The notes under the pieces: generated by a model | Seen by the model: only the letters and a program-made list of their open reading frames with translations | What the model was told of the DNA's origin: nothing | Databases searched by the model: none | Program-made: the position numbers and the translations under genes | DNA from: Lytechinus pictus | Lineage: Eukaryota | Assembly: GCF_037042905.1 (NCBI RefSeq) | Contig: NC_087251.1 | Span: 62,001-126,000 of the forward strand | Direction: 5' to 3' | DNA length: 64,000 nt | Shown here: in pieces, positions 4,064-60,927 of the stretch | Layout: the number at the start of each line of letters is the position of its first letter | Numbering within the stretch: the stretch's first letter is position 1

Positions 4064-5262
4064 TATAGTCGTCATCTGCTAAATTCAACCACAACACAGC
4101 TAGATTGTGAAGATGTACTCACTTTTTTTGTGGTTTTCCTATCCAGATAATTTCTTATTTCACCAATTTTATGATAGCCAATTGCTGCTCCCTACAAATA
4201 TCGTTAACACGGGGCTTCCCTCATACTTTATTTTGACAATTACCAATAGATATTGTGCCTTGGGGATAGGGTTAATAATAGAAACATCAACATTTAGGGT
4301 GGAAATATCATCTGAGTTTCTGTGACAAAATGTAATATGCAAATTTGAATTCTCAAATTTCTCAGAATTACACTTCAAATTATTTAAAGTTGACCATTTC
4401 ATAATTCCATTCAAATTCAATTCGGTTTTATAACGATATACTCATAAAAAATCCGAAGAATAACATTGTGAGTTTACAATCGAACATATTTTAAAAATAT
4501 ATCATACAAAATTAATATATAAAATGCACTACCCATTCGACGACCTACACAAAGAAAAAAGTATATTATAGTTATATTTCAAGAACGACTCTGTCTTGGG
4601 GAATATTGTACTACGGTATTTATCTGAGAACATCGAATAGCACACACATAACTATGCGTATAAAGACAAAACTGTGATGGGTAGAACACTCGTAACAAGG
4701 TGTGATACCTCCAATGAGTAGGCTACAGCCCGAACCCTACACAATAAATCGTTGAATTATCGCAATGAACAAGCCTTCACTTTGCTCTTAAAGAAACATT
4801 TGATATAAAAGTAAAGTGCATGTAATTGATTGTGGGGAACTTTTAATTTATATCATTCATGTATACTATTTGACAATGACACATGTCTTCCGCCATTATT
4901 TCATGTGGTCTTGTCACGTAATCGTTATTCATATCTTCCTAATTAGTAATTACCGTATACACCAAGTCAGTCATTATTAAAGACTGAGCGAAGCTGATCC
5001 CACAAGAATATTGATGCCTTGTGTTACTATGGCAACAACAATCCTTGTCATCTCTCTCCCTCTCTTATTGAGATAGGGAGGGAGAGATACGATAATATCA
5101 CGGATTGAAATGTACTTTGCACGCATTTACATCACTGCTCCTAAATGACTTCAGCAGTCTTCTCCCAATGCCAGTTCCTTACTTAGTAGTCGCACATATA
5201 TATATACGCTTTGCGTTTTGCGCACTGCGTTTCTTGGTGATGTTGACTAATAAATTCATCAT

Positions 5263-5295
5263 TTCCTGATGAAGCCCTATGGGCGAAAATTTGAT
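5263..5295 (+). ncRNA. Minimal type I hammerhead-ribozyme-like motif (PLE-type), weak stem I
   Basis: CTGATGA-A-GCCC-TAT-GGGC-GAAA-ATTT, with a palindromic AAATTT stem III. It sits in a ~150-bp island between TA tracts. Confidence 0.5.
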
Positions 5296-5359
5296 CTAAC
5301 TTTTCTCTCTACGGTTGTTTTATTCACCTTGTATTTTGCTTTATATATCTATATATATA

Positions 5360-7980
5360 TGCAGCAATGGAGATACACACCTGAAAGTTGACCCTGAGTC
5401 AAGCGACTTGAAGTCAATTTACTCAGAGTCATGTTCAGGACTTAGAATTTTTTCGAGCTCAGAGAGTGTACTGCGGGCGGCAACGGAGTGCTATATCACG
5501 ATTGCAGTTTCTTTCAGTTGATTTTTCTAACATGTTGTCTGTTTTCTTGATAAATGTTCAACTGGTTTGAGTTATTGCTTGGTTATTCATCTCTATTTGC
5601 GTTTCCTGTATTAATTATAATGCCTTAATAACAAAATAATGAGTCTAGATTTGTCATTGTAATGTTCCACGCAGAGCGATTAATGTGGGGTTGTGGTCGC
5701 TTATTAGAACATCCACTATACGTACGTGCATAGACCTACTGCGTAGGGTGTAGTCTTATTCCAGGAATAAATAAATAAGTAAAATAATAATTATAACAAT
5801 GCTCTAAAATTGTTTGGTTTTGTTTTTGTTGTTCAAACTGTGGTGTGATATTATGGTTCGACGCTTATTTTCCAAGATTCGTCAATTTTGACATCCAATA
5901 AAGTGTACTGACAGTGGCGTAGGCCTACTTCTGGTAGGGTTTGTGTCCGCGCTGCTGTTCCCCCATCCCCCATATTTTCTTCAAAAGGTTTGTGTGTGTA
6001 TGTGTGTGTGTGTGTGTGTGTGCGCGCGCATGTATGAAAATGTCGATTAATTTGATTTGATTTGATTTGTCAAGTTGAAAATGTAGATCTAGGCCGGATG
6101 AGGCAATTCTTGGTAGATCTATTGACATTGAATTGTACTTTTTTCAACATAATTAAAATACTAGATCTAGATCTATATGGTAACTATGTCAGATTTCGAT
6201 ACATATCGCCCCGCAACGCTAAAAAAAATCCACAAAGAGAGTCATAACAACTTGAGGTAAGATGACTACCACCATTATTGACCTGAAGTCAGCAAACTAA
6301 AACATATCATCACTTTGAGTCGATTTTAATGAGGGATATATTACTTTATATACTTCATATATTTTAGGTCAGTTTCACGCTAAATTAAGATACCAGTTGC
6401 TCCACCCCCCCCCCAAAAAAAAAAAACTATTATATTAAGATATGGACAGGATATGGGAATAGCGTAATGTCATCTATTCCTGAAAACCCACAAAGAGAGT
6501 CATAACAACTTCAGGTAAGATGTATACCACCATTATTGACCTCAAGTCAGCTAAGTAAAGTATATCATCACTTTGAGTCGATTATATTAAGGGATATAAG
6601 GTAATGTTATCTACTCCTGAAAATCCACAAATAGAGTCATAACAACTTCAGGTAAGATGAATACCACCATTATTGACCTCAAGTCAGCAAACTAAAACAT
6701 ATATTCTCTTTGAGTTGATTATATTAAGGGATATAAGGTAATGTTATCTAGTCCTGAAAATCCACAAAGAGAGTCATAACAACTGAACACACAGTCCCAT
6801 TCGCACGAAATCGCCTGGGCATTGCTGCATTAAGTCTCCATGCTGCAGAACTACTGGCGAGGAATGTGCGTCTTTAAATATCAACTCCCCCCCCCCCCCC
6901 AAATAAAAAATAAATAAATGAATAAATGGAAAAAAATAGTATGGGTAGATATGATACGTGGATGTCGGACATGCCGGGATAAATTAAATGTCTCTAGACA
7001 ATGTACACACATGAAAACCATAAAGTGACCCAAAACTTCAAGTAAAGTTAATACTACCCATAAAACCCGCAAGTCATCTAATAAAAAAACATGTCATCAC
7101 TTTTAGTCAGTTACATGAAGGAATATAATCACACGACTGAGGTTGTTTAATTAACAGTTTTATGCAAAATCATCATATCAATTCCCCCCCCCCCCCCCCC
7201 CCGCTGGTAAAAAAAAAGGTCATAGACAGGGTATGGGATGAGGTAATGTTATCTCAACATGAAAATCCATGAAGTGAGGCATAACAACATCAAGTTAAGT
7301 GAATACTACAGACAGTGACCTCCAGTCACCGTTCAAAAACATTCCATCACTTTTAGTCCATTATATCAAGAAATGTAATCATAATACTGAGTATTATGCT
7401 ATATTAATATATCAACTGCACCCTCCCCCAAAAAAAAAAATTGAGACATGGACAGGATCTATGATATGTTATGTATACATCGAAATCAAGTCGATCTACC
7501 TTTGTTTTCATTTTTATTGTTAATTCAAATATCAACTGCCCCCCCCCCCCCCCAACTGCAGCCCTGGAAACCCTACTAATCTAGGCCTCAGTACACTTAA
7601 TTGGATGTAATCCAAATTGAATTCAATGAACAAATATTTTGGTGATTAATCTTGGAACCATATTATTCAACTACAAAAAAATCCAAATTTTACTATTTTT
7701 TTTTAGTTATTTATTCGTTCCTGGAATAAGACTCCACTTTTTCACAAAATCAGCTGTCGCTCCGCAGAACACACAGCAGGTCTATGAATGTACGTAGTGG
7801 CTGTTCTAATAAGCGATCACACCCCCCAACTGTGTTTCCCATCGTGAAAGCACTCCATTGCCGCCCGTAGTACACTCTCCGAGCTCAAAAAATTCTAAGT
7901 CCTGAACATGACTCTGAGTAAATTGACTTCAAGTCGGTTGACTCGGGGTCAACTTTCAGGTGTGTATCTCCATTGCTGCA
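5360..7980. mobile_element. Non-autonomous DNA element with long inverted termini, inserted in a TA tract
   Basis: 5360-5503 is the near reverse complement of 7841-7980 (TGCAGCAATGGAGATACACACCTGAAAGTTGACC...). Further inverted blocks pair 5690-5785 with 7690-7825 and 5870-5910 with 7585-7655. Confidence 0.85.
6224..6785. repeat. ~137-bp tandem repeat inside the TIR element
   Basis: AAAATCCACAAAGAGAGTCATAACAAC recurs at ~6226, 6483, 6620 and 6757. Degenerate copies occur near 7012 and 7261. Confidence 0.85.
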
Positions 7981-46819: not shown

Positions 46820-46859
46820 AGTCGCTGATGAGCCTTAGGGTGAAACAGTCTGTACGACT
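46820..46859 (+). ncRNA. Type I hammerhead ribozyme
   Basis: Stem I AGTCG/CGACT, core CTGATGA, stem II GCC-TTAG-GGT, GAAA, stem III CAG-T-CTG, and a GUA cleavage triplet. Confidence 0.85.
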
Positions 46860-53072: not shown

Positions 53073-56015
53073 ATGTTTAATGATGAAGTATTTGCCCCCC
53101 AGAGCAAATATTACACTGCTAAAGAATTTATTTCAGCTTTTAATACTAAAAATCGAAACGATAAACCAAATCACTTTAGCTTAATGCACATAAACATTCG
53201 AAGCTTACAAAAGAACTTTGAAACTTTCAGTGAATTCTTAAATATATTGAATAAATTTCCATTCTCTATTATAGGTATGACCGAGACGTGGTTACACTCA
53301 ACAACCCCTCCCATATTCGAAATTGATAATTATACATTTAACCATATAGATCGTAAACAAGGTAAGGGAGGTGGGGTCGCTTTTTATATTCACAATGATA
53401 TGCATTATAAAATAAGGGACGATATTCAACTTGACGGGTTAGAAACTTTATTCATAGAAATTATCGATGATAAACATAAAAATAAAATAGTCGGTGTAAT
53501 ATATAGGCCACCAAACAGCGTTGTTGATATATTTCTAGATAGATTAGAATTATGTCTCGAAACTGTATCTCGTGAAAATAAGGACATCTACATCATGGGC
53601 GATTTTAATATAGATCTCTCAATACCTTATACTGCCCTCGGCCAACACATGATCACTTTGATGTCATCATTTTCTTTTAAACCTCTCATTGATAAACCTA
53701 CGAGGATAACAAATGCGACACATACAATTATTGACAATATTTTTACAAATGTATTTAATACCAATAATAATGGAATAATATATTATGATATCTCTGATCA
53801 TTTACCTATTTTCACGATATGTTCAAGCACCTATCGCTTACATAAACAATGCAACACAGAACACACTACTCGACGAAAAGAGACCAAGCGCAACATAGAT
53901 TCCCTAAAAACAGATCTGTTTACAGAAACATGGCAAGATGTTTATCAAGAGCAGGATGTTAACAATTCATATGAAATATTCATAAACAAACTTCTTCATT
54001 ATTACAACAAAAACGTACCTTTGACAAAAATAACTTCAAACAAAAAGAAGAATAAACAACCATGGATCACTCAAGGAATAATTAAATCTATATTTACTCG
54101 CAATAGATTGTATAAGATATCACTTAAATCACCTACAATAGAACATCAAAATAAATACAAAAAATATCGTAATAAATTAACATCTGTAATCCGTTTAGCA
54201 CGAAAATCTTACTTCTCAGACAAAATTGAAAACAATAAAGACAATAACAAAACTTTATGGCATACAATAAATGACATTCTAGGTAAGAAAAAAGATGATC
54301 GAGACAATGATGAATTTTTAGAAAATGGTGACCACATCAGAGACCCCAGTGTTATTGCAAACGCATTCAATTCATTTTTTACTAATGTTGGTCCAAACCT
54401 AGCTTCGAAAATTGTTACCAATGACCATGATTTTTCACAATATTTAGATAACCATAACGAACACTCCTTATTTTTCAACCCTACTAATATTCAGGAAATG
54501 TTAGAAATTGTTCGATCCTTAAAACCCAGCAAATCCAGTGGCCATGATGGGATAAGTGTATATCTACTTAAACAAATAATTTTTTTCCTGGCTTCTCCAC
54601 TTGTACATATTTTCAATCTGTCTCTCTCTCAAGGTGTTTTTCCTGAATCGCTAAAACTTGCCAAAATTATTCCAATATATAAAAAAGATGACCCATGTCG
54701 GATTGTAAACTACCGCCCTATTTCACTGTTACCAAGCATTTCCAAAATACTTGAAAAAATTGTTTACAATCGTTTATACTCATTTTTGGACACTAACAAA
54801 TTATTAATCCCCAATCAATATGGTTTCAGAAAAAACCATTCAACCGATTATGCAATTTTACAATTATATGATAAAATAACTGATTCACTTTCAAAAAAGG
54901 AGCACACTATTGGGGTTTTTATGGATTTATCGAAGGCGTTCGATACAATGGACCATCGCATATTACTGAGTAAACTAAAGACATATGGAATCAGAGGGAT
55001 CGTACTATCTTGGTTTAAAGATTATTTAGCTAATAGACGCCAATATGTTAATTTTAAATCCAAATCATCTAATATATGCCCCGTAATATGTGGAGTACCA
55101 CAGGGTTCAATCCTGGGACCTTTATTATTTTTAATATATATGAACGACATTGTGAACACATCACCCTTACTTACATATGTTTTATTCGCAGATGACACCA
55201 ACATATTTTATTCACACCACAACTTAAACATACTTGTTGCAACTCTCAATCAAGAATTAAAGAAATTATCAATATGGTTTAAATCAAACAAACTTTCACT
55301 TAACATAGATAAAACAAATTTCATGTACTTCAAACACATTAATTCTAAACATATATTTCGCGATAATATTTATATCAATGATATACCCATTAATGAAAAA
55401 CAAGAAACTAAATTTTTAGGTGTAGTGATCGATGCTAACATAACTTGGAGTAGTCACATTCGTAATATAAGCATGATGGCAGGAAGAGGCATAGGCATTT
55501 TGTATAAATTAAAATATTATATCTCTCAAAGATCGTTACTTATGCTCTATAACTCATTTATCTTATCGTATATATCTTATTGTAATATTGTATGGGGAAA
55601 TAGTAACAAAATCAAAATCGATTCAATATTGCGCCTTCAAAAGAAAGCACTTCGCATTTGTCATCACTCCCATTATCTCGCTCATACTGATCCTATATTT
55701 CATGATTTTAAAACATTGAAGATCTACGATATTCACACTTATCAAACTGCTATTTTTATGTACAAATTTTCCACCAACACTATACCAACACCCTTTCGAA
55801 ATATTTTTGTCTATAATAGAGACATTCATTCATACCCTACTCGACATTCATCTGACTTTCATTTAACAAACCCAAAACTAATAATTGCTCACAAAACAAT
55901 ACGGCATCACGGCCCGGATGTTTGGAACAACCTTCCGAATGATATCAAACAAGCTGCATCTCTTATATCATTTAAAGCTTCACTAAAGAGGTACCTTTTA
56001 TCTAAATACTTATAA
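53073..56015 (+). CDS. LINE ORF2p: apurinic-like endonuclease + reverse transcriptase (980 aa from the first ATG; frame open from 52941)
   Basis: Endonuclease motifs HINIRSL, ETWL, YRPP, GDFN, IDNIF and SDH. RT motifs NYRPISLL, QYGFR, DLSKAFDT, GVPQGSILGP and FADD. No stops. Confidence 0.97.
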   Translation: MFNDEVFAPQSKYYTAKEFISAFNTKNRNDKPNHFSLMHINIRSLQKNFETFSEFLNILNKFPFSIIGMTETWLHSTTPPIFEIDNYTFNHIDRKQGKGGGVAFYIHNDMHYKIRDDIQLDGLETLFIEIIDDKHKNKIVGVIYRPPNSVVDIFLDRLELCLETVSRENKDIYIMGDFNIDLSIPYTALGQHMITLMSSFSFKPLIDKPTRITNATHTIIDNIFTNVFNTNNNGIIYYDISDHLPIFTICSSTYRLHKQCNTEHTTRRKETKRNIDSLKTDLFTETWQDVYQEQDVNNSYEIFINKLLHYYNKNVPLTKITSNKKKNKQPWITQGIIKSIFTRNRLYKISLKSPTIEHQNKYKKYRNKLTSVIRLARKSYFSDKIENNKDNNKTLWHTINDILGKKKDDRDNDEFLENGDHIRDPSVIANAFNSFFTNVGPNLASKIVTNDHDFSQYLDNHNEHSLFFNPTNIQEMLEIVRSLKPSKSSGHDGISVYLLKQIIFFLASPLVHIFNLSLSQGVFPESLKLAKIIPIYKKDDPCRIVNYRPISLLPSISKILEKIVYNRLYSFLDTNKLLIPNQYGFRKNHSTDYAILQLYDKITDSLSKKEHTIGVFMDLSKAFDTMDHRILLSKLKTYGIRGIVLSWFKDYLANRRQYVNFKSKSSNICPVICGVPQGSILGPLLFLIYMNDIVNTSPLLTYVLFADDTNIFYSHHNLNILVATLNQELKKLSIWFKSNKLSLNIDKTNFMYFKHINSKHIFRDNIYINDIPINEKQETKFLGVVIDANITWSSHIRNISMMAGRGIGILYKLKYYISQRSLLMLYNSFILSYISYCNIVWGNSNKIKIDSILRLQKKALRICHHSHYLAHTDPIFHDFKTLKIYDIHTYQTAIFMYKFSTNTIPTPFRNIFVYNRDIHSYPTRHSSDFHLTNPKLIIAHKTIRHHGPDVWNNLPNDIKQAASLISFKASLKRYLLSKYL

Positions 56016-56400
56016 ATTCTCACCTGCACTCGCACTCACTTGCACACACTTCATCTTGCCCCTTCCCCCCTTCCTTTTATTATATTTTAAGCTATATAAG
56101 TGACATCACTTTTAAATAATAAAGACTCGGTATTTTTATTATGGTTTCCATGTAGCCTCTTTTCCCCTGGCTGCTATTATTTCAAGCTTTCAGCTTACGA
56201 TAGCTGGCCTCTGCATTTACATTCATTTGTTATTGTTTACATGAATATTATGTCTATTATATCTACTTAACTACTATACAATTGTCACCTTTGTAACTTG
56301 ATCAGTATGTATGTTTCATTTTATATCATTGTTATAAATTTGTAATTTTGATTTATTAATAAATGCAGAAATACTGCTTTAAAAAAAAAAATTTTTAAAA

Positions 56401-56928
56401 AAAAGGAAAATAACATTTTTATAACGTTCAATTTCTGCTCTTTAATTTGATACCTCAATTACAGAAAACGGTCGAGAAAAAATAAAGTTCTGTTTATTTC
56501 AAATAAGGCATGAATTCCAATAAATTCATAAAATGAAGAGGGTTTACAAGGTAGCTTTCAGAACACTGCGTTTTCTTGACGATCAGCTATGCATTGAGTC
56601 TTTTGTTAAACGTGCGATAGCTTAGGTGGGAAACCGGTGAAAACCTGTTTGTTTCAGGAAATTATGGGAATACAAGCATTCTTTCGAAGAACCATAACTT
56701 TGTTATATTTTGACCATTTTCTGAGATTTAGCTATCAAATTAAGAGAAGATAGTGAACTTTTAGGCATGTGATTTTCTTTTAAAAATGTTGATACCCCCG
56801 CCGAATGACTATTTGCTATCCTTTCTTCAAATTGTTTTTACTCACTCATGCGTGGATGAGAAATCTTGTATGTTATACCAGTTAAGAGGAGATTCTAAGC
56901 TTTACAATGGTAGGTGCGAGACACACTG
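56401..56928. mobile_element. Right part of the split Tc1-like MITE (internal deletion near the end)
   Basis: Resumes at GAAAATAACAT..GTTCAATTTCTGC, collinear with 38258-38770; ends GAGACACACTG. Confidence 0.85.
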
Positions 56929-56930
56929 TG

Positions 56931-56969
56931 TATATATATATATATTGTTCTCTTCATCCATTTCCTTCA

Positions 56970-57060
<91 letters not shown>
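56931..57060. repeat. (TA)n/(TG)n microsatellite containing a 22-bp relic of the adjacent element
   Basis: Simple repeats. TGTTCTCTTCATCCATTTC at 56946 matches the sequence at ~57633. Confidence 0.9.
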
Positions 57061-57061
<1 letters not shown>

Positions 57062-57208
57062 AAAGTTATACATGTACAACAGCTATTGGCAACTCTTTTT
57101 ATTTAAATATTGTAAAGAAATGGATGAAGAGAACAAAGGTAGGCGTAGCTTAAATCAAGGTTCCCCAGAGCTATCTACCCTTTGGAAAAATTGGTGATGC
57201 CGAAAAAA

Positions 57209-57280
57209 TGTCTCTGCCGGGAATCGAACCCGGGCCCCCAGCTTTGAACGCCGGTGCCTTAACCACTAGACCACAGAGAC
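57209..57280 (-). tRNA. tRNA-like gene with UCA anticodon (tRNA-Glu-like D and T arms; not tRNA-Sec architecture)
   Basis: GTCTCTG TG GTCT AGTGGTTA AGGC A CCGGC GTTCAAA GCTGG GGGC CCGGG TTCGATT CCCGG CAGAGAC A, then TTTTTT. All four stems pair. G32 is atypical. Confidence 0.8.
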
Positions 57281-57895
57281 GGGTTAGTGGCTAGGGCGAC
57301 CCCGATCCGTTTGACCGTCAGATAGACAAATTTTCGACACCATGCCAATTATAATTTCCTTTGTCGGGTGAAGGTGGGTTTTTAACAATGACAAGCCGCC
57401 ATGCCTCAGCTGGATCAAAGCTATTGCTTCGATACAGTACACGTATGGGCGAAGAAATACAAATGTGTAAAGTTATACATGTACAACAGCTATTGGCAAC
57501 TCTTTTTTATTTAAATATTGTAAAGAAATGGATGAAGAGAACAAAGGTAGGCAGAGACATTTTTTCGGCATCACCAATTTTTCCAAAGGGTAGATAGCTC
57601 TGGGGAACCTTGATTTAAGCTACGCCTACCTTTGTTCTCTTCATCCATTTCTTTACAATATTTAAATAAAAAAGAGTTGCCAATAGCTGTTGTACATGTA
57701 TAACTTTACACATTTGTATTTCTTCGCCCATACGTGTACTGTATCGAAGCAATAGCTTTGATCCAGCTGAGGCATGGCGGCTTGTCATTGTTAAAAACCC
57801 ACCTTCACCCGACAAAGGAAATTATAATTGGCATGGTGTCGAAAATCTGTCTATCTGACGGTCAAACGGATCGGGGTCGCCCTAGCCACTAACCC

Positions 57896-57966
57896 GTCTC
57901 TGTGGTCTAGTGGTTAAGGCACCGGCGTTCAAAGCTGGGGCCCGGGTTCGATTCCCGGCAGAGACA
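57896..57966 (+). tRNA. Second copy of the UCA-anticodon tRNA-like gene
   Basis: Same sequence with one G fewer in the variable region, followed by TTTTTT. Confidence 0.75.
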
Positions 57967-58031
57967 TTTTTTCGGCATCACCAATTTTTCCAAAGGGTAG
58001 ATAGCTCTGGGGAACCTTGATTTAAGCTACG

Positions 58032-58083
<52 letters not shown>

Positions 58084-58094
58084 CTGTATATATG

Positions 58095-58768
58095 TATTTG
58101 AGATCAAGAGTATGGGAGGGCTGTAGCAAGGTCAATTCCAGTATTCATCAAGCTTTCGGGCACATGCCCTTCATCAGGATCTAAACCTATATAAAATACA
58201 AAATAAATAGACCTACTAATAACAATGATAAATATAATACAATGCAATATATAACGGAGATAAGTAATTACAGTCCATAAGTAATAACCAATTATTCATA
58301 TAAGGTAATGGTGAGTCAATATGTAACGAAGTATAGAATATATAGTTACCGTAAGGTCCGTAAGTATAGTGTATTGTTGACAGTAAAGTTAAGTGTAAAG
58401 TGAGGTCAGGTGTGCGGGGATGAGTTCATTAGAGGGTGAAGAGGGTCGTTTATTGGTCGGCGTTTATACCACGTGGTCTTATTAATGTTTTGAGTTTGTG
58501 TATCCAATGAGATTCCCTTTTCATGATGGTGTCGTGTTTCTTGTTTTTTACTATTTCGATGGCAGTGATTTTAATGTTGTGTACTGTATGGCCGGGAAGT
58601 TTTGAAATGTATGGTGTATGGGAGGGTTTTGCTGTTGGGTTTGTTTTTGTTGTAATTGGTTACTTCTGATCTAGTGTTATTTAGTCGTGTGTATAGTGTT
58701 GTTTCAGTCTTTCCGACGTATTGCATGTTGCATTTAATGCATGTTAGGAGGTAGATGACCCATGAGGA
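58095..58768 (-). mobile_element. 5'-truncated Penelope-like element (GIY-YIG C-terminus + 3' region) between TA tracts
   Basis: VIYLLTCIKCNMQYVGKTETTLYTRLNN..HF, then after frameshifts LPGHTVHNIKITAIE..RESHWIHKLKTL..PRGINADQ* (stop at 58450-58452). The CxxC in the motif is Neptune-like. Confidence 0.88.
58147..58180 (-). ncRNA. Minimal type I hammerhead ribozyme in the PLE 3' region
   Basis: ATC-CTGATGA-A-GGGC-ATGT-GCCC-GAAA-GC-TT-GAT, with a palindromic AAGCTT stem III as in dimeric PLE hammerheads. Confidence 0.75.
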
Positions 58769-60927
58769 TATATATATATATATATATATATACACTGCAT
58801 ACAATTAGTGAGTGTGGGGTTTTTCGCAATAATGAATTGCAAACGTCTAGATCTAGACTATAGGTGGATGTCTGTATGACCTGATTCGCATCAATCTAGC
58901 AACACTGATCACCCATCCAGGGGCTCCATCAGGTCCACCATCCAACATGACAACTCCAATCTGTGTATGAGAGCCTTTCAACACGATTCCCGGATTAGAT
59001 ACTCTCAAATCAATCATTCTCAATTGGGATATAATCAGGGATATCTTCCCTGGTTCTATTCAAAGTTGTAAAGATCGTGTTTCTCCACCATGGCACCGTG
59101 AATGAATTTATCACGGTTTAATTAATGCGCGCCCATAACGACTCAGTAATATATTCAAATAATGAATTAAGATCCCTCTTCTGAGCTTATGGTAGCAAGT
59201 TACTCCATTAACCTGTTTAACATGAAAAATAAATTAACCGTTTTAAAGACTCTATGTTTCTTTTTCAGGTAAGAAAATGGGGAAGCATTTAAGTAGGCTG
59301 GAACAAATTTTATTTGAAAGGGATATTCACTTGAACTATATGAAAAAAATAAAACCCCAATTTTCCCTACCTCGATGTGATAATGCCCCTACTGCAAGTC
59401 TAGAAGACTAAGGCAAACGCACTTTAATGACACATATGCCTTACTTAACAGTGGAGATATGAGATTTTTAGGGGCCAGATATGGTATCGGACAAGAGAGC
59501 AAAGTGAGCGAGAGGAGAGATTTTATTTATTAAGAAAATAACGTCATATTTCACCCTTCGTTCTTTCCTCTATTTTTCCTTTTCTCTTTTTTTTCTTGGT
59601 AGTGAAAAATTTAGGGGGAAGTGCCCTGAAGAACCCCCCCCCCCCCTCATCTGTACGCCATTGCAACTTATTGCCCTACTTGTGGGGTTTGGGAGGGGTC
59701 CTATTTTTTTTTTTTTACAAAGTTGGGATACAGTGAATTTATTCGAATCATTGCAGGCCTATTGTACACACCATGATGATAGCTTTAATAGCATTAAAAC
59801 ATCAGCCCAAAATGACCTTTAACTAGACAAAATTGAATCTATTTCCTAATTTATCAATAATTATATGCTTTTCACACTGCATTTCCTTAATAGTCCGGCA
59901 GCCCAGGAGATTTATTCAAACGAAAGCCTGACAAGCAAATGACCCCATAGCTGGATGACATGGACCCTTAAGTTTATAAAAATGCATTGCTGCCGGGTTT
60001 CATCCGTGATCTTCCCGCCGAAATGACGTAATATATGACGTCACTACAAAATGGCCCTATTTCACAATTTTTTAGACATTCTACACATAGCATGAAGTCA
60101 AGGGAATATATCTCAACCAAACCATGTTTTTTTGTATGAAATTTTCAAAATATATTGTTCAAGTAGTGCAAAAGAAACATGCAAAATTTCACGAACAGAA
60201 ATTATTGTTTACATATGCAGATTATGTCATGAAATTTGCATATCATTAGTTTGGAAGATTTCTTGCTTCAAAAATTGTCGAAAATCGATTCAGAAATGTA
60301 TTTTCTTTCTTAGTGTACTTTCTTTGATATATTTCCTGTCAAGCATGATATCGTTCTTTTTATCTATATCTCTACTTTTAGAAAATATATGTCAGTAATT
60401 GAAAATGACATTATAGACTGTGATTTCAGCCCCCTTTTCAATATGGTGCGTACATAGAAATCGTGCGTTTTGGGCCTATTTTCACCATATAGCTGAGGTG
60501 TGCTTACGATATGCCTACGTTATGGATGTTTCCTGCATTTTGCATGATATTAAATCTTCCAAACAACATATTTTCATCTTCATTATGTCTCTGCTAATAA
60601 ATTAAGGATTTCAGCAAAGATTGATTGCCCACTGGGCAGTCTATAGGCTACGTTTTCAGCCTAGTTTTCAACAACGAACCTATACCATGTATGACTGCAT
60701 TATTGTAGTCGTGTCGGAAATGGAAGTTCCTGTGCACTATCATAATATATTTTTAATCAACGTTTTTGTATTGCCTGAAGTGTCTAGTTAATGAATCTTG
60801 ATGTTCCCTTTGCAAAATCGTGTCCCACGGGGTTCAAAATTGATATCTTTGGCGGCCCTCTTGGATTTTTAAAATGAAAATTCATTATTTTCATATTTTT
60901 TTGCACAGAGTGTGACAATGGGACAAT

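Follow-up and report, generated by a model that had tools for sequence, protein, structure and literature searches.

A head-to-head pair of 407-nt units in a (TA)n/(TG)n tract

The window (the whole stretch of 64,000 nucleotides analysed here, from contig NC_087251.1 of Lytechinus pictus) carries two arms of a non-coding 407-nt unit, which we number so that unit position 1 is window position 57629 and unit position 407 is 58035 (Table 1). The original prediction described these arms as two ~1.2-mers with different permutation points, and this was confirmed by the coordinates of the direct repeats spaced 407/408 nt (57550-57628 equals 57957-58035 at 100%, with further pairs at 57057-57107/57464-57514 and 57096-57144/57504-57552) and of the inverted pairs, which are 57230-57552/57624-57946 (323 nt, 99%) and, at 100%, 57096-57218/57550-57672 and 57140-57238/57937-58035. 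The inverted joining at a GGC inside a TA/TG tract was also confirmed, both by the overlap of the arms and by their (TA)n/(TG)n flanks. On its own strand, the left arm has its 3' end at unit 84 (ACACA), adjoining (CA)n(TA)n, and the right arm has its 3' end at unit 407 (CCTA), adjoining (TA)n, which is a rare site found at only one of 60 readable 3' ends of the family. The short tail beyond the left microsatellite has its 3' end toward the microsatellite and is inverted with respect to the left arm.

Table 1. Features of the locus (window coordinates)
Feature	Position	Strand	Details
38-nt "tail"	56945..56982	+	unit 4-40, 87% identity
Compound microsatellite (TA)33(TG)11	56973..57060	.	adjoins 3' end of left arm
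(TA)33	56973-57038		
(TG)11	57039-57060		
Left arm, ~1.21 units	57059..57552	-	unit 403-407, 1-407, 1-84
tRNA module, left arm	57209..57280	-	anticodon TCA, 72 nt, 60.9 bits (Rfam tRNA)
GGC common to both arms	57550..57552	.	head-to-head (5'-to-5') junction, 3-nt overlap
Right arm, ~1.19 units	57550..58035	+	unit 329-407, 1-407
Conserved core, unit 181-407	57809..58035	+	rod-like fold, tRNA at tip
tRNA module, right arm	57896..57966	+	anticodon TCA, 71 nt, 54.8 bits (Rfam tRNA)
T6 run	57967-57972		unit 339-344, directly after right-arm tRNA
(TA)16 and (TA)8	58034..58083	.	between 3' ends of right arm and neighbouring hammerhead-bearing element

Each arm contains a tRNA module that is internal to the unit (positions 268-338), and no poly-A is present at the window copies, both as had been claimed. 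At the sequence level the module has the features of a functional gene, namely a cloverleaf with intact D and T arms and a downstream T-run, and a 13-mer of its D arm and a 20-mer of its T arm are identical to the genome's own tRNA-Glu genes. Position 32 of this tRNA is a G, which we take to be unusual. Furthermore, a tRNA is present in every full unit, the anticodon columns are invariant in all of the 67 aligned units and the T6 run is conserved.

The tRNA lies at the tip of a rod formed by a strongly folding core (unit 181-407), which includes the helix between 57817-57845 and 57969-57991 that had been proposed from the sequence; this helix is found in both the MFE and the centroid folds, with its two G-U pairs. 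The fold z was -5.56 for the sense RNA and -2.69 for the antisense RNA. A second proposed hairpin, CAAAGGGTAG...CTACCTTTG, does form locally, with a fold that 71 of 200 shuffles equal or better (z = -0.17), and it is absent from the whole-unit fold. Among 70 monomers, the minor-allele frequency is ~3% in unit 1-267 and ~1% in unit 268-407, and, of the differences that are diagnostic for two subfamilies, 12 fall in unit 1-180 and 2 in unit 181-407 (Fisher p = 0.0018). The named structure is 97.2% paired across the alignment and shuffles are equally so; only two pairs changed on both sides, a number reached by 181 of 500 shuffles, and covariation is undetectable because the copies are too alike in this alignment of 63 units of one subfamily and 4 of another, which has no power. 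The reported absence of a hammerhead was borne out, as CUGAnGA occurs on neither strand of the circularly extended consensus and no Rfam ribozyme family was matched, whether in 56000-59500 (E<=1) or in 57550-58035 (E<=10).

Ends and strand polarity of the family, and the PLEs of the same genome

The unit is multi-locus rather than single-locus: there were 894 first-look candidates in the genome, an exact 24-mer of the unit occurs 1,283 times and its tRNA-type pattern 1,947 times (all the genome-wide pattern counts given here require exact matches). Arrays of 0.1 to at least 43 units are present on all large contigs. The longest one noted (~43 units at C2:8866017-8883498) and an unplaced contig covered in its entirety by units (C317) are long homogeneous head-to-tail arrays, like those of classical satellites, and ordinary satellite expansion may be the source of their size; the array on C2 also terminates in a junction between unit position 32 and (TA)n. 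Two exact-pattern scans of metagenome contigs found no relatives, and a search of the open literature together with three k-mers of the unit found no published description of such an element (Repbase/Dfam and subscription journals being outside its scope). A candidate autonomous element between two units 2.1 kb apart (L070) was discarded, as the locus is one array split by a foreign 1.7-kb insertion.

The ends of the copies were read in 65 arms from 36 loci, a sample that is not random since it was made up of the 35 best-scoring of the 894 candidates and a few hand-picked places; in microsatellite targets, target-site duplications and empty sites cannot be read. On the tRNA-sense strand, 54 of 60 readable 3' ends fall at unit 25-40 (22), 84 (15) or 88-93 (17), three sites that carry TA or CA microhomology, and the remaining six are at other positions. 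TA/CA/TG microsatellite makes up at least half of the first 20 flanking bases at 52 of the 60 ends, and four lack a microsatellite altogether. The 5' ends, of which 62 could be read, are scattered over unit 1-386, and 44 of the 62 meet an inverted arm. None lies within 2 nt of the tRNA start (unit 268), in agreement with the earlier statement that this is not an ordinary SINE. Eight of the 62 are located in the T-arm region of the tRNA (unit 316-338; binomial p = 0.02, for an interval chosen post hoc), where an RT pause is possible. Arms of ~1.2-2.3 units are common, and 7 of the 65 arms, including the one at the left of the locus described above, are short tails of 33-40 nt that end at the canonical 3' sites. 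Twenty-two head-to-head pairs were found at other loci, each with its own individual junction, and the microhomology at the inversion junction, GGC in the window, is 0-3 nt elsewhere.

The junctions are also strongly polarised. Unit 16-32 followed by (TA)n gave 225 genome-wide matches versus 4 for its mirror image, in which (TA)n precedes unit 33 onward. Likewise, unit 70-84 followed by (TA)5 within 30 nt gave 163 matches on the plus strand alone (the minus-strand count of 1,421 is inflated by overlapping matches) versus none for (TA)n followed by unit 93 onward, and the reversed-pattern controls gave 0 in every genome-wide junction search. With this asymmetry (225 versus 4, and at least 163 versus 0), only one strand acts as template. 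Moreover, both arms in the window carry the rare variants 56T, 98G, 165A and 238A, each of which is present in only 3-4 of the 67 aligned units, and in a two-unit inverted pair (C19) the private variant 372A is found in both inner units and nowhere else in the pair. These shared rare variants indicate a single source for the two arms of a pair.

The same genome contains an intact 944-aa ORF with RT and with GIY-YIG at its C terminus (L043, 5137-7971, minus strand), whose PLE-type domain set was confirmed by a protein atlas search. This L043-type PLE shows a tandem pseudo-LTR of 561 bp along with a 5'-truncated copy in inverted orientation, and it carries a hammerhead-like core near its 3' end, ~60 nt from the 3' junction in the PLE tails. 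All 14 tail matches (in 12 loci, several of them overlapping) stop at two end sites, either at ...CATCTCAT directly on TA repeats (5 of 14) or 56 nt further, at ...CACAC then TATA (9 of 14), and they are alternative microhomology 3' ends of the same kind as in the 407-nt unit. In addition, a hammerhead-bearing PLE-type element has its 3' end in the same TA tract as the unit (window, L045).

The insertion architecture of the unit had been called PLE-like, and it does match the hallmarks described for PLEs, which are truncation at the 5' end, partial tandems, inversion of a 5'-truncated copy, a tail of 30-40 bp and a preference for (TA)n (Craig et al. 2021, PMC8557442), the intact PLE of this genome being alike. 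Thus the copies of the unit combine 5' truncation and fixed 3' ends with partial tandems, an inverted arm, tails and a microsatellite bias; 3'-end sequence in common with an autonomous PLE was not found in the two PLE-type families compared. The unit has no sequence in common with the L043-type PLE loci, and no significant similarity to the neighbouring hammerhead element; the best local alignment, which pairs unit 123-148 with the 5' part of the hammerhead, scores 23 for a shuffle maximum of 24 and was rejected as a homology. As there is no sequence common to the unit and these two families, no autonomous partner was identified. Non-autonomous elements usually resemble their autonomous partner at the 3' end.

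How the family may have spread

All these data suggest that the locus is probably one insertion of a non-autonomous, tRNA(UCA)-bearing family with a 407-nt unit, which has spread into (TA)n/(TG)n by PLE-type target-primed reverse transcription. According to this, arrays would be transcribed into multimeric tRNA-sense RNA, a PLE endonuclease would nick the microsatellite, and the freed DNA 3' end would anneal to a short complementary segment within that RNA, mostly AAUAU (unit 29-33), ACACA (80-84) or UAUAU (88-93) and rarely elsewhere, for example to CCUA at 407 in the window; the 3' junctions do cluster at exactly these microhomology sites. The RT would then copy 0.1 to several units toward the RNA 5' end and stop at variable points, the scattered 5' ends being the observed part of this step. 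Finally, the second DNA end would often prime on the same RNA, giving rise either to a head-to-head inverted arm or to an aborted 33-40-nt tail; the arms and the tails are observed, and the priming is what we infer from them. Very tentatively, unit 181-407 could be a cis-acting module needed by the RT/RNP, for recognition or for RNA stability, and we are inclined, with the same reserve, not to read it as a cleavage site or a template promoter. It is placed roughly where the PLE pseudo-LTRs carry the hammerhead.

The original prediction went further and proposed a PLE-mobilised, possibly circular RNA in which tRNA processing (RNase P/Z) or a Pol III promoter takes the role of the ribozyme; taken as a whole, it is partly supported. 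Such a retrozyme analogue, in which multimers would be cut by RNase P/Z at the tRNA or started by Pol III, circularised and copied by the PLE RT round the circle, is in our opinion unlikely. The insertions are indeed tandem, non-coding and PLE-like, arms longer than one unit require a template that is multimeric or circular, the tRNA is fully conserved in a sense RNA that forms a stable rod, and it is located ~100-150 nt from the 3' junction sites, roughly the place of the hammerhead in the PLE tails (~60 nt). However, not one of the 60 3' ends falls at unit 267, nor any of the 62 5' ends at unit 339 or 268 (within 2 nt), and excision would strip the tRNA from the product whereas every full unit retains it, which indicates that the template was copied without a cut at the tRNA. 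Pol III does not fare better as the source of the template, because the conserved T6 run directly 3' of the tRNA is expected to terminate it. RNase P and RNase Z produce ends with a 5'-phosphate and a 3'-OH, and it is established that RtcB does not use these. RtcB is the ligase that has been shown to circularise animal retrozymes (PMC7229834). Moreover, tandems do not require circles, since PLEs of 3-4 kb also form partial tandems (PMC8557442), and the variant private to the inner units of the C19 pair would fit a heterogeneous linear multimer better than a monomeric circle, although this is one example.

A different possibility is that extrachromosomal satellite circles or ectopic copies were patched at the DNA level into (TA)n breaks, by microhomology-mediated repair or replication template switching, a process that would give rise to fold-back inversions too. 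The strand asymmetry opposes this, because a double-stranded donor should be copied from either strand, and we regard it as quite unlikely; the discrete class of 33-40-nt tails and the presence in the same genome of an RT-encoding PLE with identical junction behaviour also speak against it. It would nevertheless be in keeping with the microhomology at the 3' and inversion junctions, with the existence of long satellite-like arrays and with the nature of long (TA)n tracts, which are known as fragile sites. The public sequencing runs bear on this point too, as their matches are contigs and give no proof of RNA. Twenty runs match part of the stretch, which is also present in a second species, and only one is recorded as RNA; the four that we compared were all available as contigs, which prove no transcription, strand, ends or circles. 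The RNA-labelled one, a marine metatranscriptome (X20), has three contigs over 57836-58035 with a depth of at most 11. Contigs of X11, X18 and X19, whose RNA label is a guess, cover the unit, and an adapter-like string, presumably a cDNA template-switch oligo, is present at some of the loose ends of X11 and X18.

It is very unlikely that the unit is instead a SINE-like partner of a microsatellite-tailed or microsatellite-targeting LINE, with inversions arising by L1-type twin priming. Its tRNA is not 5'-terminal, a single defined tail is absent, and in the comparison, which covered PLE-type families, the L043-type PLE inserts into the same target and has alternative 3' ends of a similar kind, even if 5' truncation and 5' inversion occur with LINEs also, some LINE clades target simple repeats or end in them, and no sequence link between the unit and the two PLE-type families compared was found. 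Lastly, an assembly artefact, in which a palindrome in this microsatellite region rich in repeats would be collapsed or chimeric, is scarcely credible: inverted repeats beside long (TA)n are hard to assemble and the only differences between the two arms are homopolymer lengths and one substitution, but their end points (84 versus 407) and inner break points differ, so that neither is a plain mirror image of the other, 22 head-to-head pairs elsewhere have their own junctions, and independent DNA runs contain 56-70% of the sampled words of the stretch (at the level of words, not of junction-spanning reads).

If the family was spread by PLE-type target-primed reverse transcription, as we favour, several consequences follow. 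The integration mechanism of PLEs is still undefined, as one published account states, and this small, abundant and young family offers hundreds of simple junctions in which the 3' end of the copy would be set by a few paired bases between the nicked microsatellite and the RNA, and in which both target strands would often prime on one RNA. Such pairing-set 3' ends recall the way in which telomerase, to which the PLE RT is most closely related, aligns its primer. A PLE rider would not need to carry a hammerhead, and this bears on the purpose of the hammerhead. Arrays of this kind also confuse tRNA gene counts, microsatellite markers and repeat annotation. It is doubtful, on the other hand, that the tRNA(UCA) at the rod tip is the working part of the element, either for the handling of the transcript by host enzymes (RNase P/Z, or splicing endonuclease plus RtcB) or as a vehicle that amplifies ~1,900 UGA-reading tRNA genes. 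The first version, if true, would mean that PLE-borne unit or circular RNAs arise without a ribozyme, by a route that depends on proteins. The second would mean ~1,900 potentially expressed tRNA genes, with a conceivable link to PLE ORFs with in-frame UGA, such as those of the selenoprotein PLEs named Naiad (PMC8557442). If the tRNA is expressed, it would be remarkable in itself for one genome to have close to two thousand genes for UGA-reading tRNAs.

Comparison with known systems

The unit has in common with tRNA-derived SINEs a tRNA module (here tRNA-Glu-like), a high copy number and no coding capacity, but its tRNA is internal, complete and followed by its own terminator, and the copies do not start at it. 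Furthermore, the copies are tandem or inverted and have neither poly-A nor a LINE-type tail (LINE tails were outside the comparison); instead, their 3' ends are at three internal microhomology sites directly on (TA)n/(CA)n. A small-RNA gene conserved in the terminal repeat of a non-autonomous retroelement has been described in TRIMp3 (Cassandra, Helenus and Ajax; Kojima 2024, PMC10886601). These, however, belong to the LTR elements: they have a primer-binding site and a polypurine tract, are flanked by target duplications of 4-5 bp, and contain tRNA-like parts that fail to fold as tRNAs (PMC10886601), whereas the unit has a PLE-like architecture and a perfect cloverleaf.

The animal non-LTR retrozymes are short non-coding units in dispersed head-to-tail arrays, like the 407-nt unit, and it has been proposed that they ride on PLEs as non-autonomous elements (PMC7229834; Li, Clavereau & Pollet 2026, 10.64898/2026.07.22.740005), with a stable, highly paired RNA (Cervera & de la Pena 2020, PMC7229834; preprint 10.64898/2026.07.22.740005). 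They have a type-I hammerhead in each unit, in contrast to our unit, which has an intact tRNA gene in place of a hammerhead or other Rfam ribozyme and whose copies have ends that give no sign of unit-length processing. Retrozymes form circular RNA, for which we claim no counterpart, the 407-nt unit being known from DNA copies. In short, the unit resembles a retrozyme without the ribozyme.

The non-autonomous PLEs MRC1 and other Chlamys derivatives come close in architecture, as they too form partial tandems of a pseudo-LTR-like type and multicopy head-to-tail insertions, are truncated at the 5' end, have inverted copies and tails, and insert into microsatellites (PMC8557442). Their 3' end is common with that of the autonomous family (PMC8557442), which was not found for the unit, and in that paper none is reported with a tRNA, the sole mention of the word there referring to tRNA-Sec. 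Finally, the autonomous L043 PLE is unlike the unit in that it encodes RT and GIY-YIG, carries a hammerhead-like core and has no sequence similarity to it, but in both the 3' end meets (TA)n at alternative microhomology sites, the 3' repeat is in tandem and a 5'-truncated copy lies inverted.

Locus structure and family size

We resolved the window locus by BLAST with the 407-nt non-coding unit into two inverted arms lying between microsatellites (see table; unit numbering runs from window 57629, position 1, to window 58035, position 407), and the repeat search returned both the 407/408-nt spacing of direct repeats and three long inverted pairs with 99-100% identity. Each arm contains a tRNA with anticodon TCA (60.9 and 54.8 bits with the Rfam tRNA model) at unit 268-338, directly followed by six T. 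No ribozyme family was found by Rfam searches of 56000-59500 at E<=1 and of 57550-58035 at E<=10, and CUGAnGA is absent from both strands of the unit consensus, in agreement with the lack of a hammerhead noted originally. According to the repeat search, BLAST, tRNA scan and Rfam, the locus had been described correctly in the original prediction except for a second hairpin, which folds no better than shuffled sequence (z = -0.17).

Features of the window locus and further elements in the window
Feature	Position	Strand	Remarks
Left arm	57059-57552	minus	unit 403-407, 1-407, 1-84 (BLAST)
Right arm	57550-58035	plus	unit 329-407, 1-407 (BLAST)
GGC common to both arms	57550-57552		5'-to-5' meeting point
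(TA)33(TG)11 microsatellite	left of locus		
(TA)16/(TA)8 microsatellite	right of locus		
38-nt unit piece	56945-56982		unit 4-40, 87% identity; beyond left microsatellite and oriented towards it
Hammerhead-bearing PLE-type element, 5'-truncated 3' end	58100-58190	minus	roughly 95 nt; core 58154-58177
CUGAUGA...GAAA core	5197-5362		within roughly 140-nt stretch, TA runs both sides; looks like another PLE 3' remnant
CUGAUGA...GAAA core	46825-46845		about 100 nt upstream of (TACT)n/(TACA)n tract
Inverted repeat	56442-56545 / 56640-56743		just upstream of locus; 104-nt arms, 74% complementary, 94 nt apart; could be MITE-like

Genome-wide, the unit proved to be a family and not a single locus. The 812-Mb assembly yielded 894 first-look candidates, 35 of which were scored and gave 156 matches of 91-100% identity. 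The 24-mer of unit 16-39 occurs exactly 1,283 times, and a pattern from the tRNA D-arm to the T-arm 1,947 times; three of the first 100 matches of the latter are ordinary tRNA-Glu genes, and nearly all others are of the unit's tRNA type, including a few diverged ones. Array sizes range from fragments up to about 43 units (C2:8866017-8883498), and one unplaced contig is covered by units. A sequencing run labelled as a different organism contains 54% of the sampled words. In one array (G000:C2:2664600-2667800) the units are split by a 1.7-kb foreign sequence, a nested insertion of a different mobile element, and unit positions 232-238 recur at both of its edges as a 7-bp duplication.

Template and polarity of copying

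Four rare variants (56T, 98G, 165A and 238A), each present in only 3-4 of the 67 aligned units, occur in both window arms, which therefore come from one source. Judged from the sequence, the window insertion was a single event, probably with a linear, multimeric template. An inverted pair on contig C19, with two full units per arm, has a private variant, 372A, which among all aligned units occurs in its two inner units alone. Such a mirrored pattern would be expected from priming by the two DNA ends at nearly the same place of a single heterogeneous, multimeric RNA. A DNA palindrome would also give rise to this pattern, but it would not be expected from a monomeric circle, as far as this single example goes.

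The ends of the copies were compared in 65 arms parsed in 36 loci, a sample (30 first-search loci, 20 further fetched places and one chance locus beside a PLE) that is biased to the best-scoring places. Most readable 3' ends (54 of 60) fall at unit 25-40 (22 arms), 84 (15) or 88-93 (17), where the unit sequence is ACAATAT, ACACA and TTTGTATAT; the right window arm, ending at 407 with CCTA followed by TATA, is the sole case of its kind among the 60. In 52 of the 60 3' flanks, 10 or more of the following 20 bases are TA/CA/TG microsatellite; a further four flanks have a TA or CA run of lesser length, and the remaining four have none. As ends at 84 lead into (CA)n and then (TA)n, and those at 32 or 91 into (TA)n alone, the junction tracks local microhomology. 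The 62 readable 5' ends are dispersed over unit 1-386, all of them more than 2 nt away from the tRNA boundaries. An inverted arm lies head-to-head with 44 of these ends (22 pairs, with break points differing pair by pair), eight adjoin microsatellite and ten other sequence. Seven of the 65 arms are merely 33-40 nt long, and all seven terminate at a canonical 3' site.

The same polarity was found genome-wide, where unit position 32 followed by (TA)n has 225 exact matches and its mirror, (TA)n followed by position 33 onward, has four. For positions 84-91 followed by (TA)n there are 163 exact matches, counted on the plus strand alone (overlapping matches inflate the minus-strand figure), and none for (TA)n followed by position 93 onward; reversed-pattern controls gave 0 in each junction search. 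A double-stranded donor patched into the genome should have left TA tracts on either side of the same TA-like sites, which was not observed. A single strand of the unit is copied, and the constant joining of the 3' side of the tRNA-sense strand to TA is what target-primed reverse transcription of the sense RNA predicts.

The conserved core and its tRNA

Variation is about 3% in unit 1-267 versus about 1% in 268-407 (70 monomers), and the diagnostic substitutions that separate a diverged subfamily of four copies from the main subfamily number 12 in unit 1-180 and two in 181-407 (Fisher p = 0.0018). None of the 67 aligned units deviates in the anticodon columns. Compared with shuffled sequences, the sense RNA has a far more stable fold (-135.9 kcal/mol, z = -5.56), and the antisense RNA exceeds them by less (z = -2.69). 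The predicted rod spans unit 148-405 with the tRNA region at its tip, and includes the 23-bp helix with two G-U pairs originally proposed, in which subfamily differences are confined to internal loops. Formal covariation is absent among the aligned units because almost nothing varies. A few changes preserve pairing: in the acceptor stem, A71G and A69G produce G-U pairs; C28U, G32A and A38U co-occur in a lineage on C21; and one diverged C1 copy has U-A for C-G in the anticodon stem. Four diverged copies (L018, L008, L069 and L067) have internal deletions between short direct repeats, three within the tRNA (about unit 306-329, 298-330 and 294-299) and one just past it (346-363), which may reflect reverse transcriptase skipping over stable hairpins or ordinary replication slippage.

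The unit tRNA has the same D-arm 13-mer and 20-nt T-arm string as the tRNA-Glu(CTC/TTC) of this genome, whereas its anticodon arm is different. Ordinary tRNA-Glu genes (TTC, CTC) with identical strings lie at G000:C1:23494042, C1:40688904 and C1:40703792, and such genes are the likely ancestral source of the module.

It had been suggested that tRNA processing by RNase P/Z, or a Pol III promoter, fills the role of the ribozyme. Cutting of the template by RNase P/Z should give copies lacking the tRNA or ending at unit 267 or 339, and none was found among the parsed arms; a Pol III transcript from the tRNA promoter should stop at the conserved T6 just past the tRNA. The T6 run pairs within the predicted rod, which may be the reason why it is kept. 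No support was obtained for models that invoke circular RNA, processing of the tRNA or a Pol III promoter. Given the lack of copies ending at the tRNA and the T6 stop, we read the core as a cis element, which could serve the reverse transcriptase/RNP or RNA stability. The core is located about 100-150 nt upstream of the patches used for priming, a position that roughly corresponds to that of the hammerhead in PLE tails. It is possible that the tRNA is a functional UGA-reading tRNA, or that it has a processing role via another enzyme.

Relationship to Penelope-like elements

According to PMC8557442, PLE insertions are characterized by strong 5' truncation, partial tandems giving pseudo-LTRs, a 5'-truncated inverted copy at the 5' end and a one-end tail of 30-40 bp, and PLEs insert into microsatellites, (TA)n in Naiads; LINEs are described there as lacking the tandem/inverted structures and tail (Craig et al. 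2021), and non-autonomous elements with multicopy head-to-tail insertions are mentioned. All the structural hallmarks listed there are present in the unit family.

An intact PLE of the same genome has a 561-bp tandem 3' repeat, a 1.9-kb inverted 5'-truncated copy and a CUGAnGA...GAAA core close to its end. Two kinds of end account for all 14 tail matches of this family (12 fetched loci, several overlapping): five have ...CATCTCAT as their last bases, with TA repeats directly adjoining, and nine continue for another 56 nt to ...CACAC and then TATA; part of the loci display the TA tract in full. This autonomous family (loci L034-L045, e.g. L043 3870-5137, minus strand) therefore has two alternative 3' termini 56 nt apart, each with a CAT or CACAC patch directly on TA repeats, which suggests that in PLEs in general the 3' end of a copy is determined by microhomology between primer and template. 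The tRNA unit behaves in the same way, with alternative 3' ends at TA/CA microhomology.

The hammerhead-bearing element of the table, the second PLE-type element, shares one (TA)n tract with the tRNA array and adjoins it by its 3' end. Its core consists of CUGAUGA, a 4-bp helix II, GAAA and then palindromic AGCU, with no Rfam match even at E<=10. With up to 2 mismatches allowed, a 30-mer of this element has 126 occurrences genome-wide; these often form closely spaced inverted pairs or follow one another on the same strand at a distance of about 3.3-3.5 kb. At locus L045, where a TA tract likewise bears its 3' end, it forms an inverted pair (6555-6745).

The unit has no similarity to the two PLE-type families compared, the intact PLE and the hammerhead element. 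The structure of the copies supports well the PLE mobilisation originally proposed, and on these sequence grounds we consider it rather likely that the unit is mobilised by a PLE-type mechanism. We file it among the non-autonomous PLE-type elements, as one that lacks a ribozyme, bears a tRNA and targets (TA)n. No earlier account of a PLE rider with a tRNA was found in the freely accessible literature searched. The closest analogues are the TRIMp3 LTR elements, which have small-RNA genes within their LTRs (PMC10886601).
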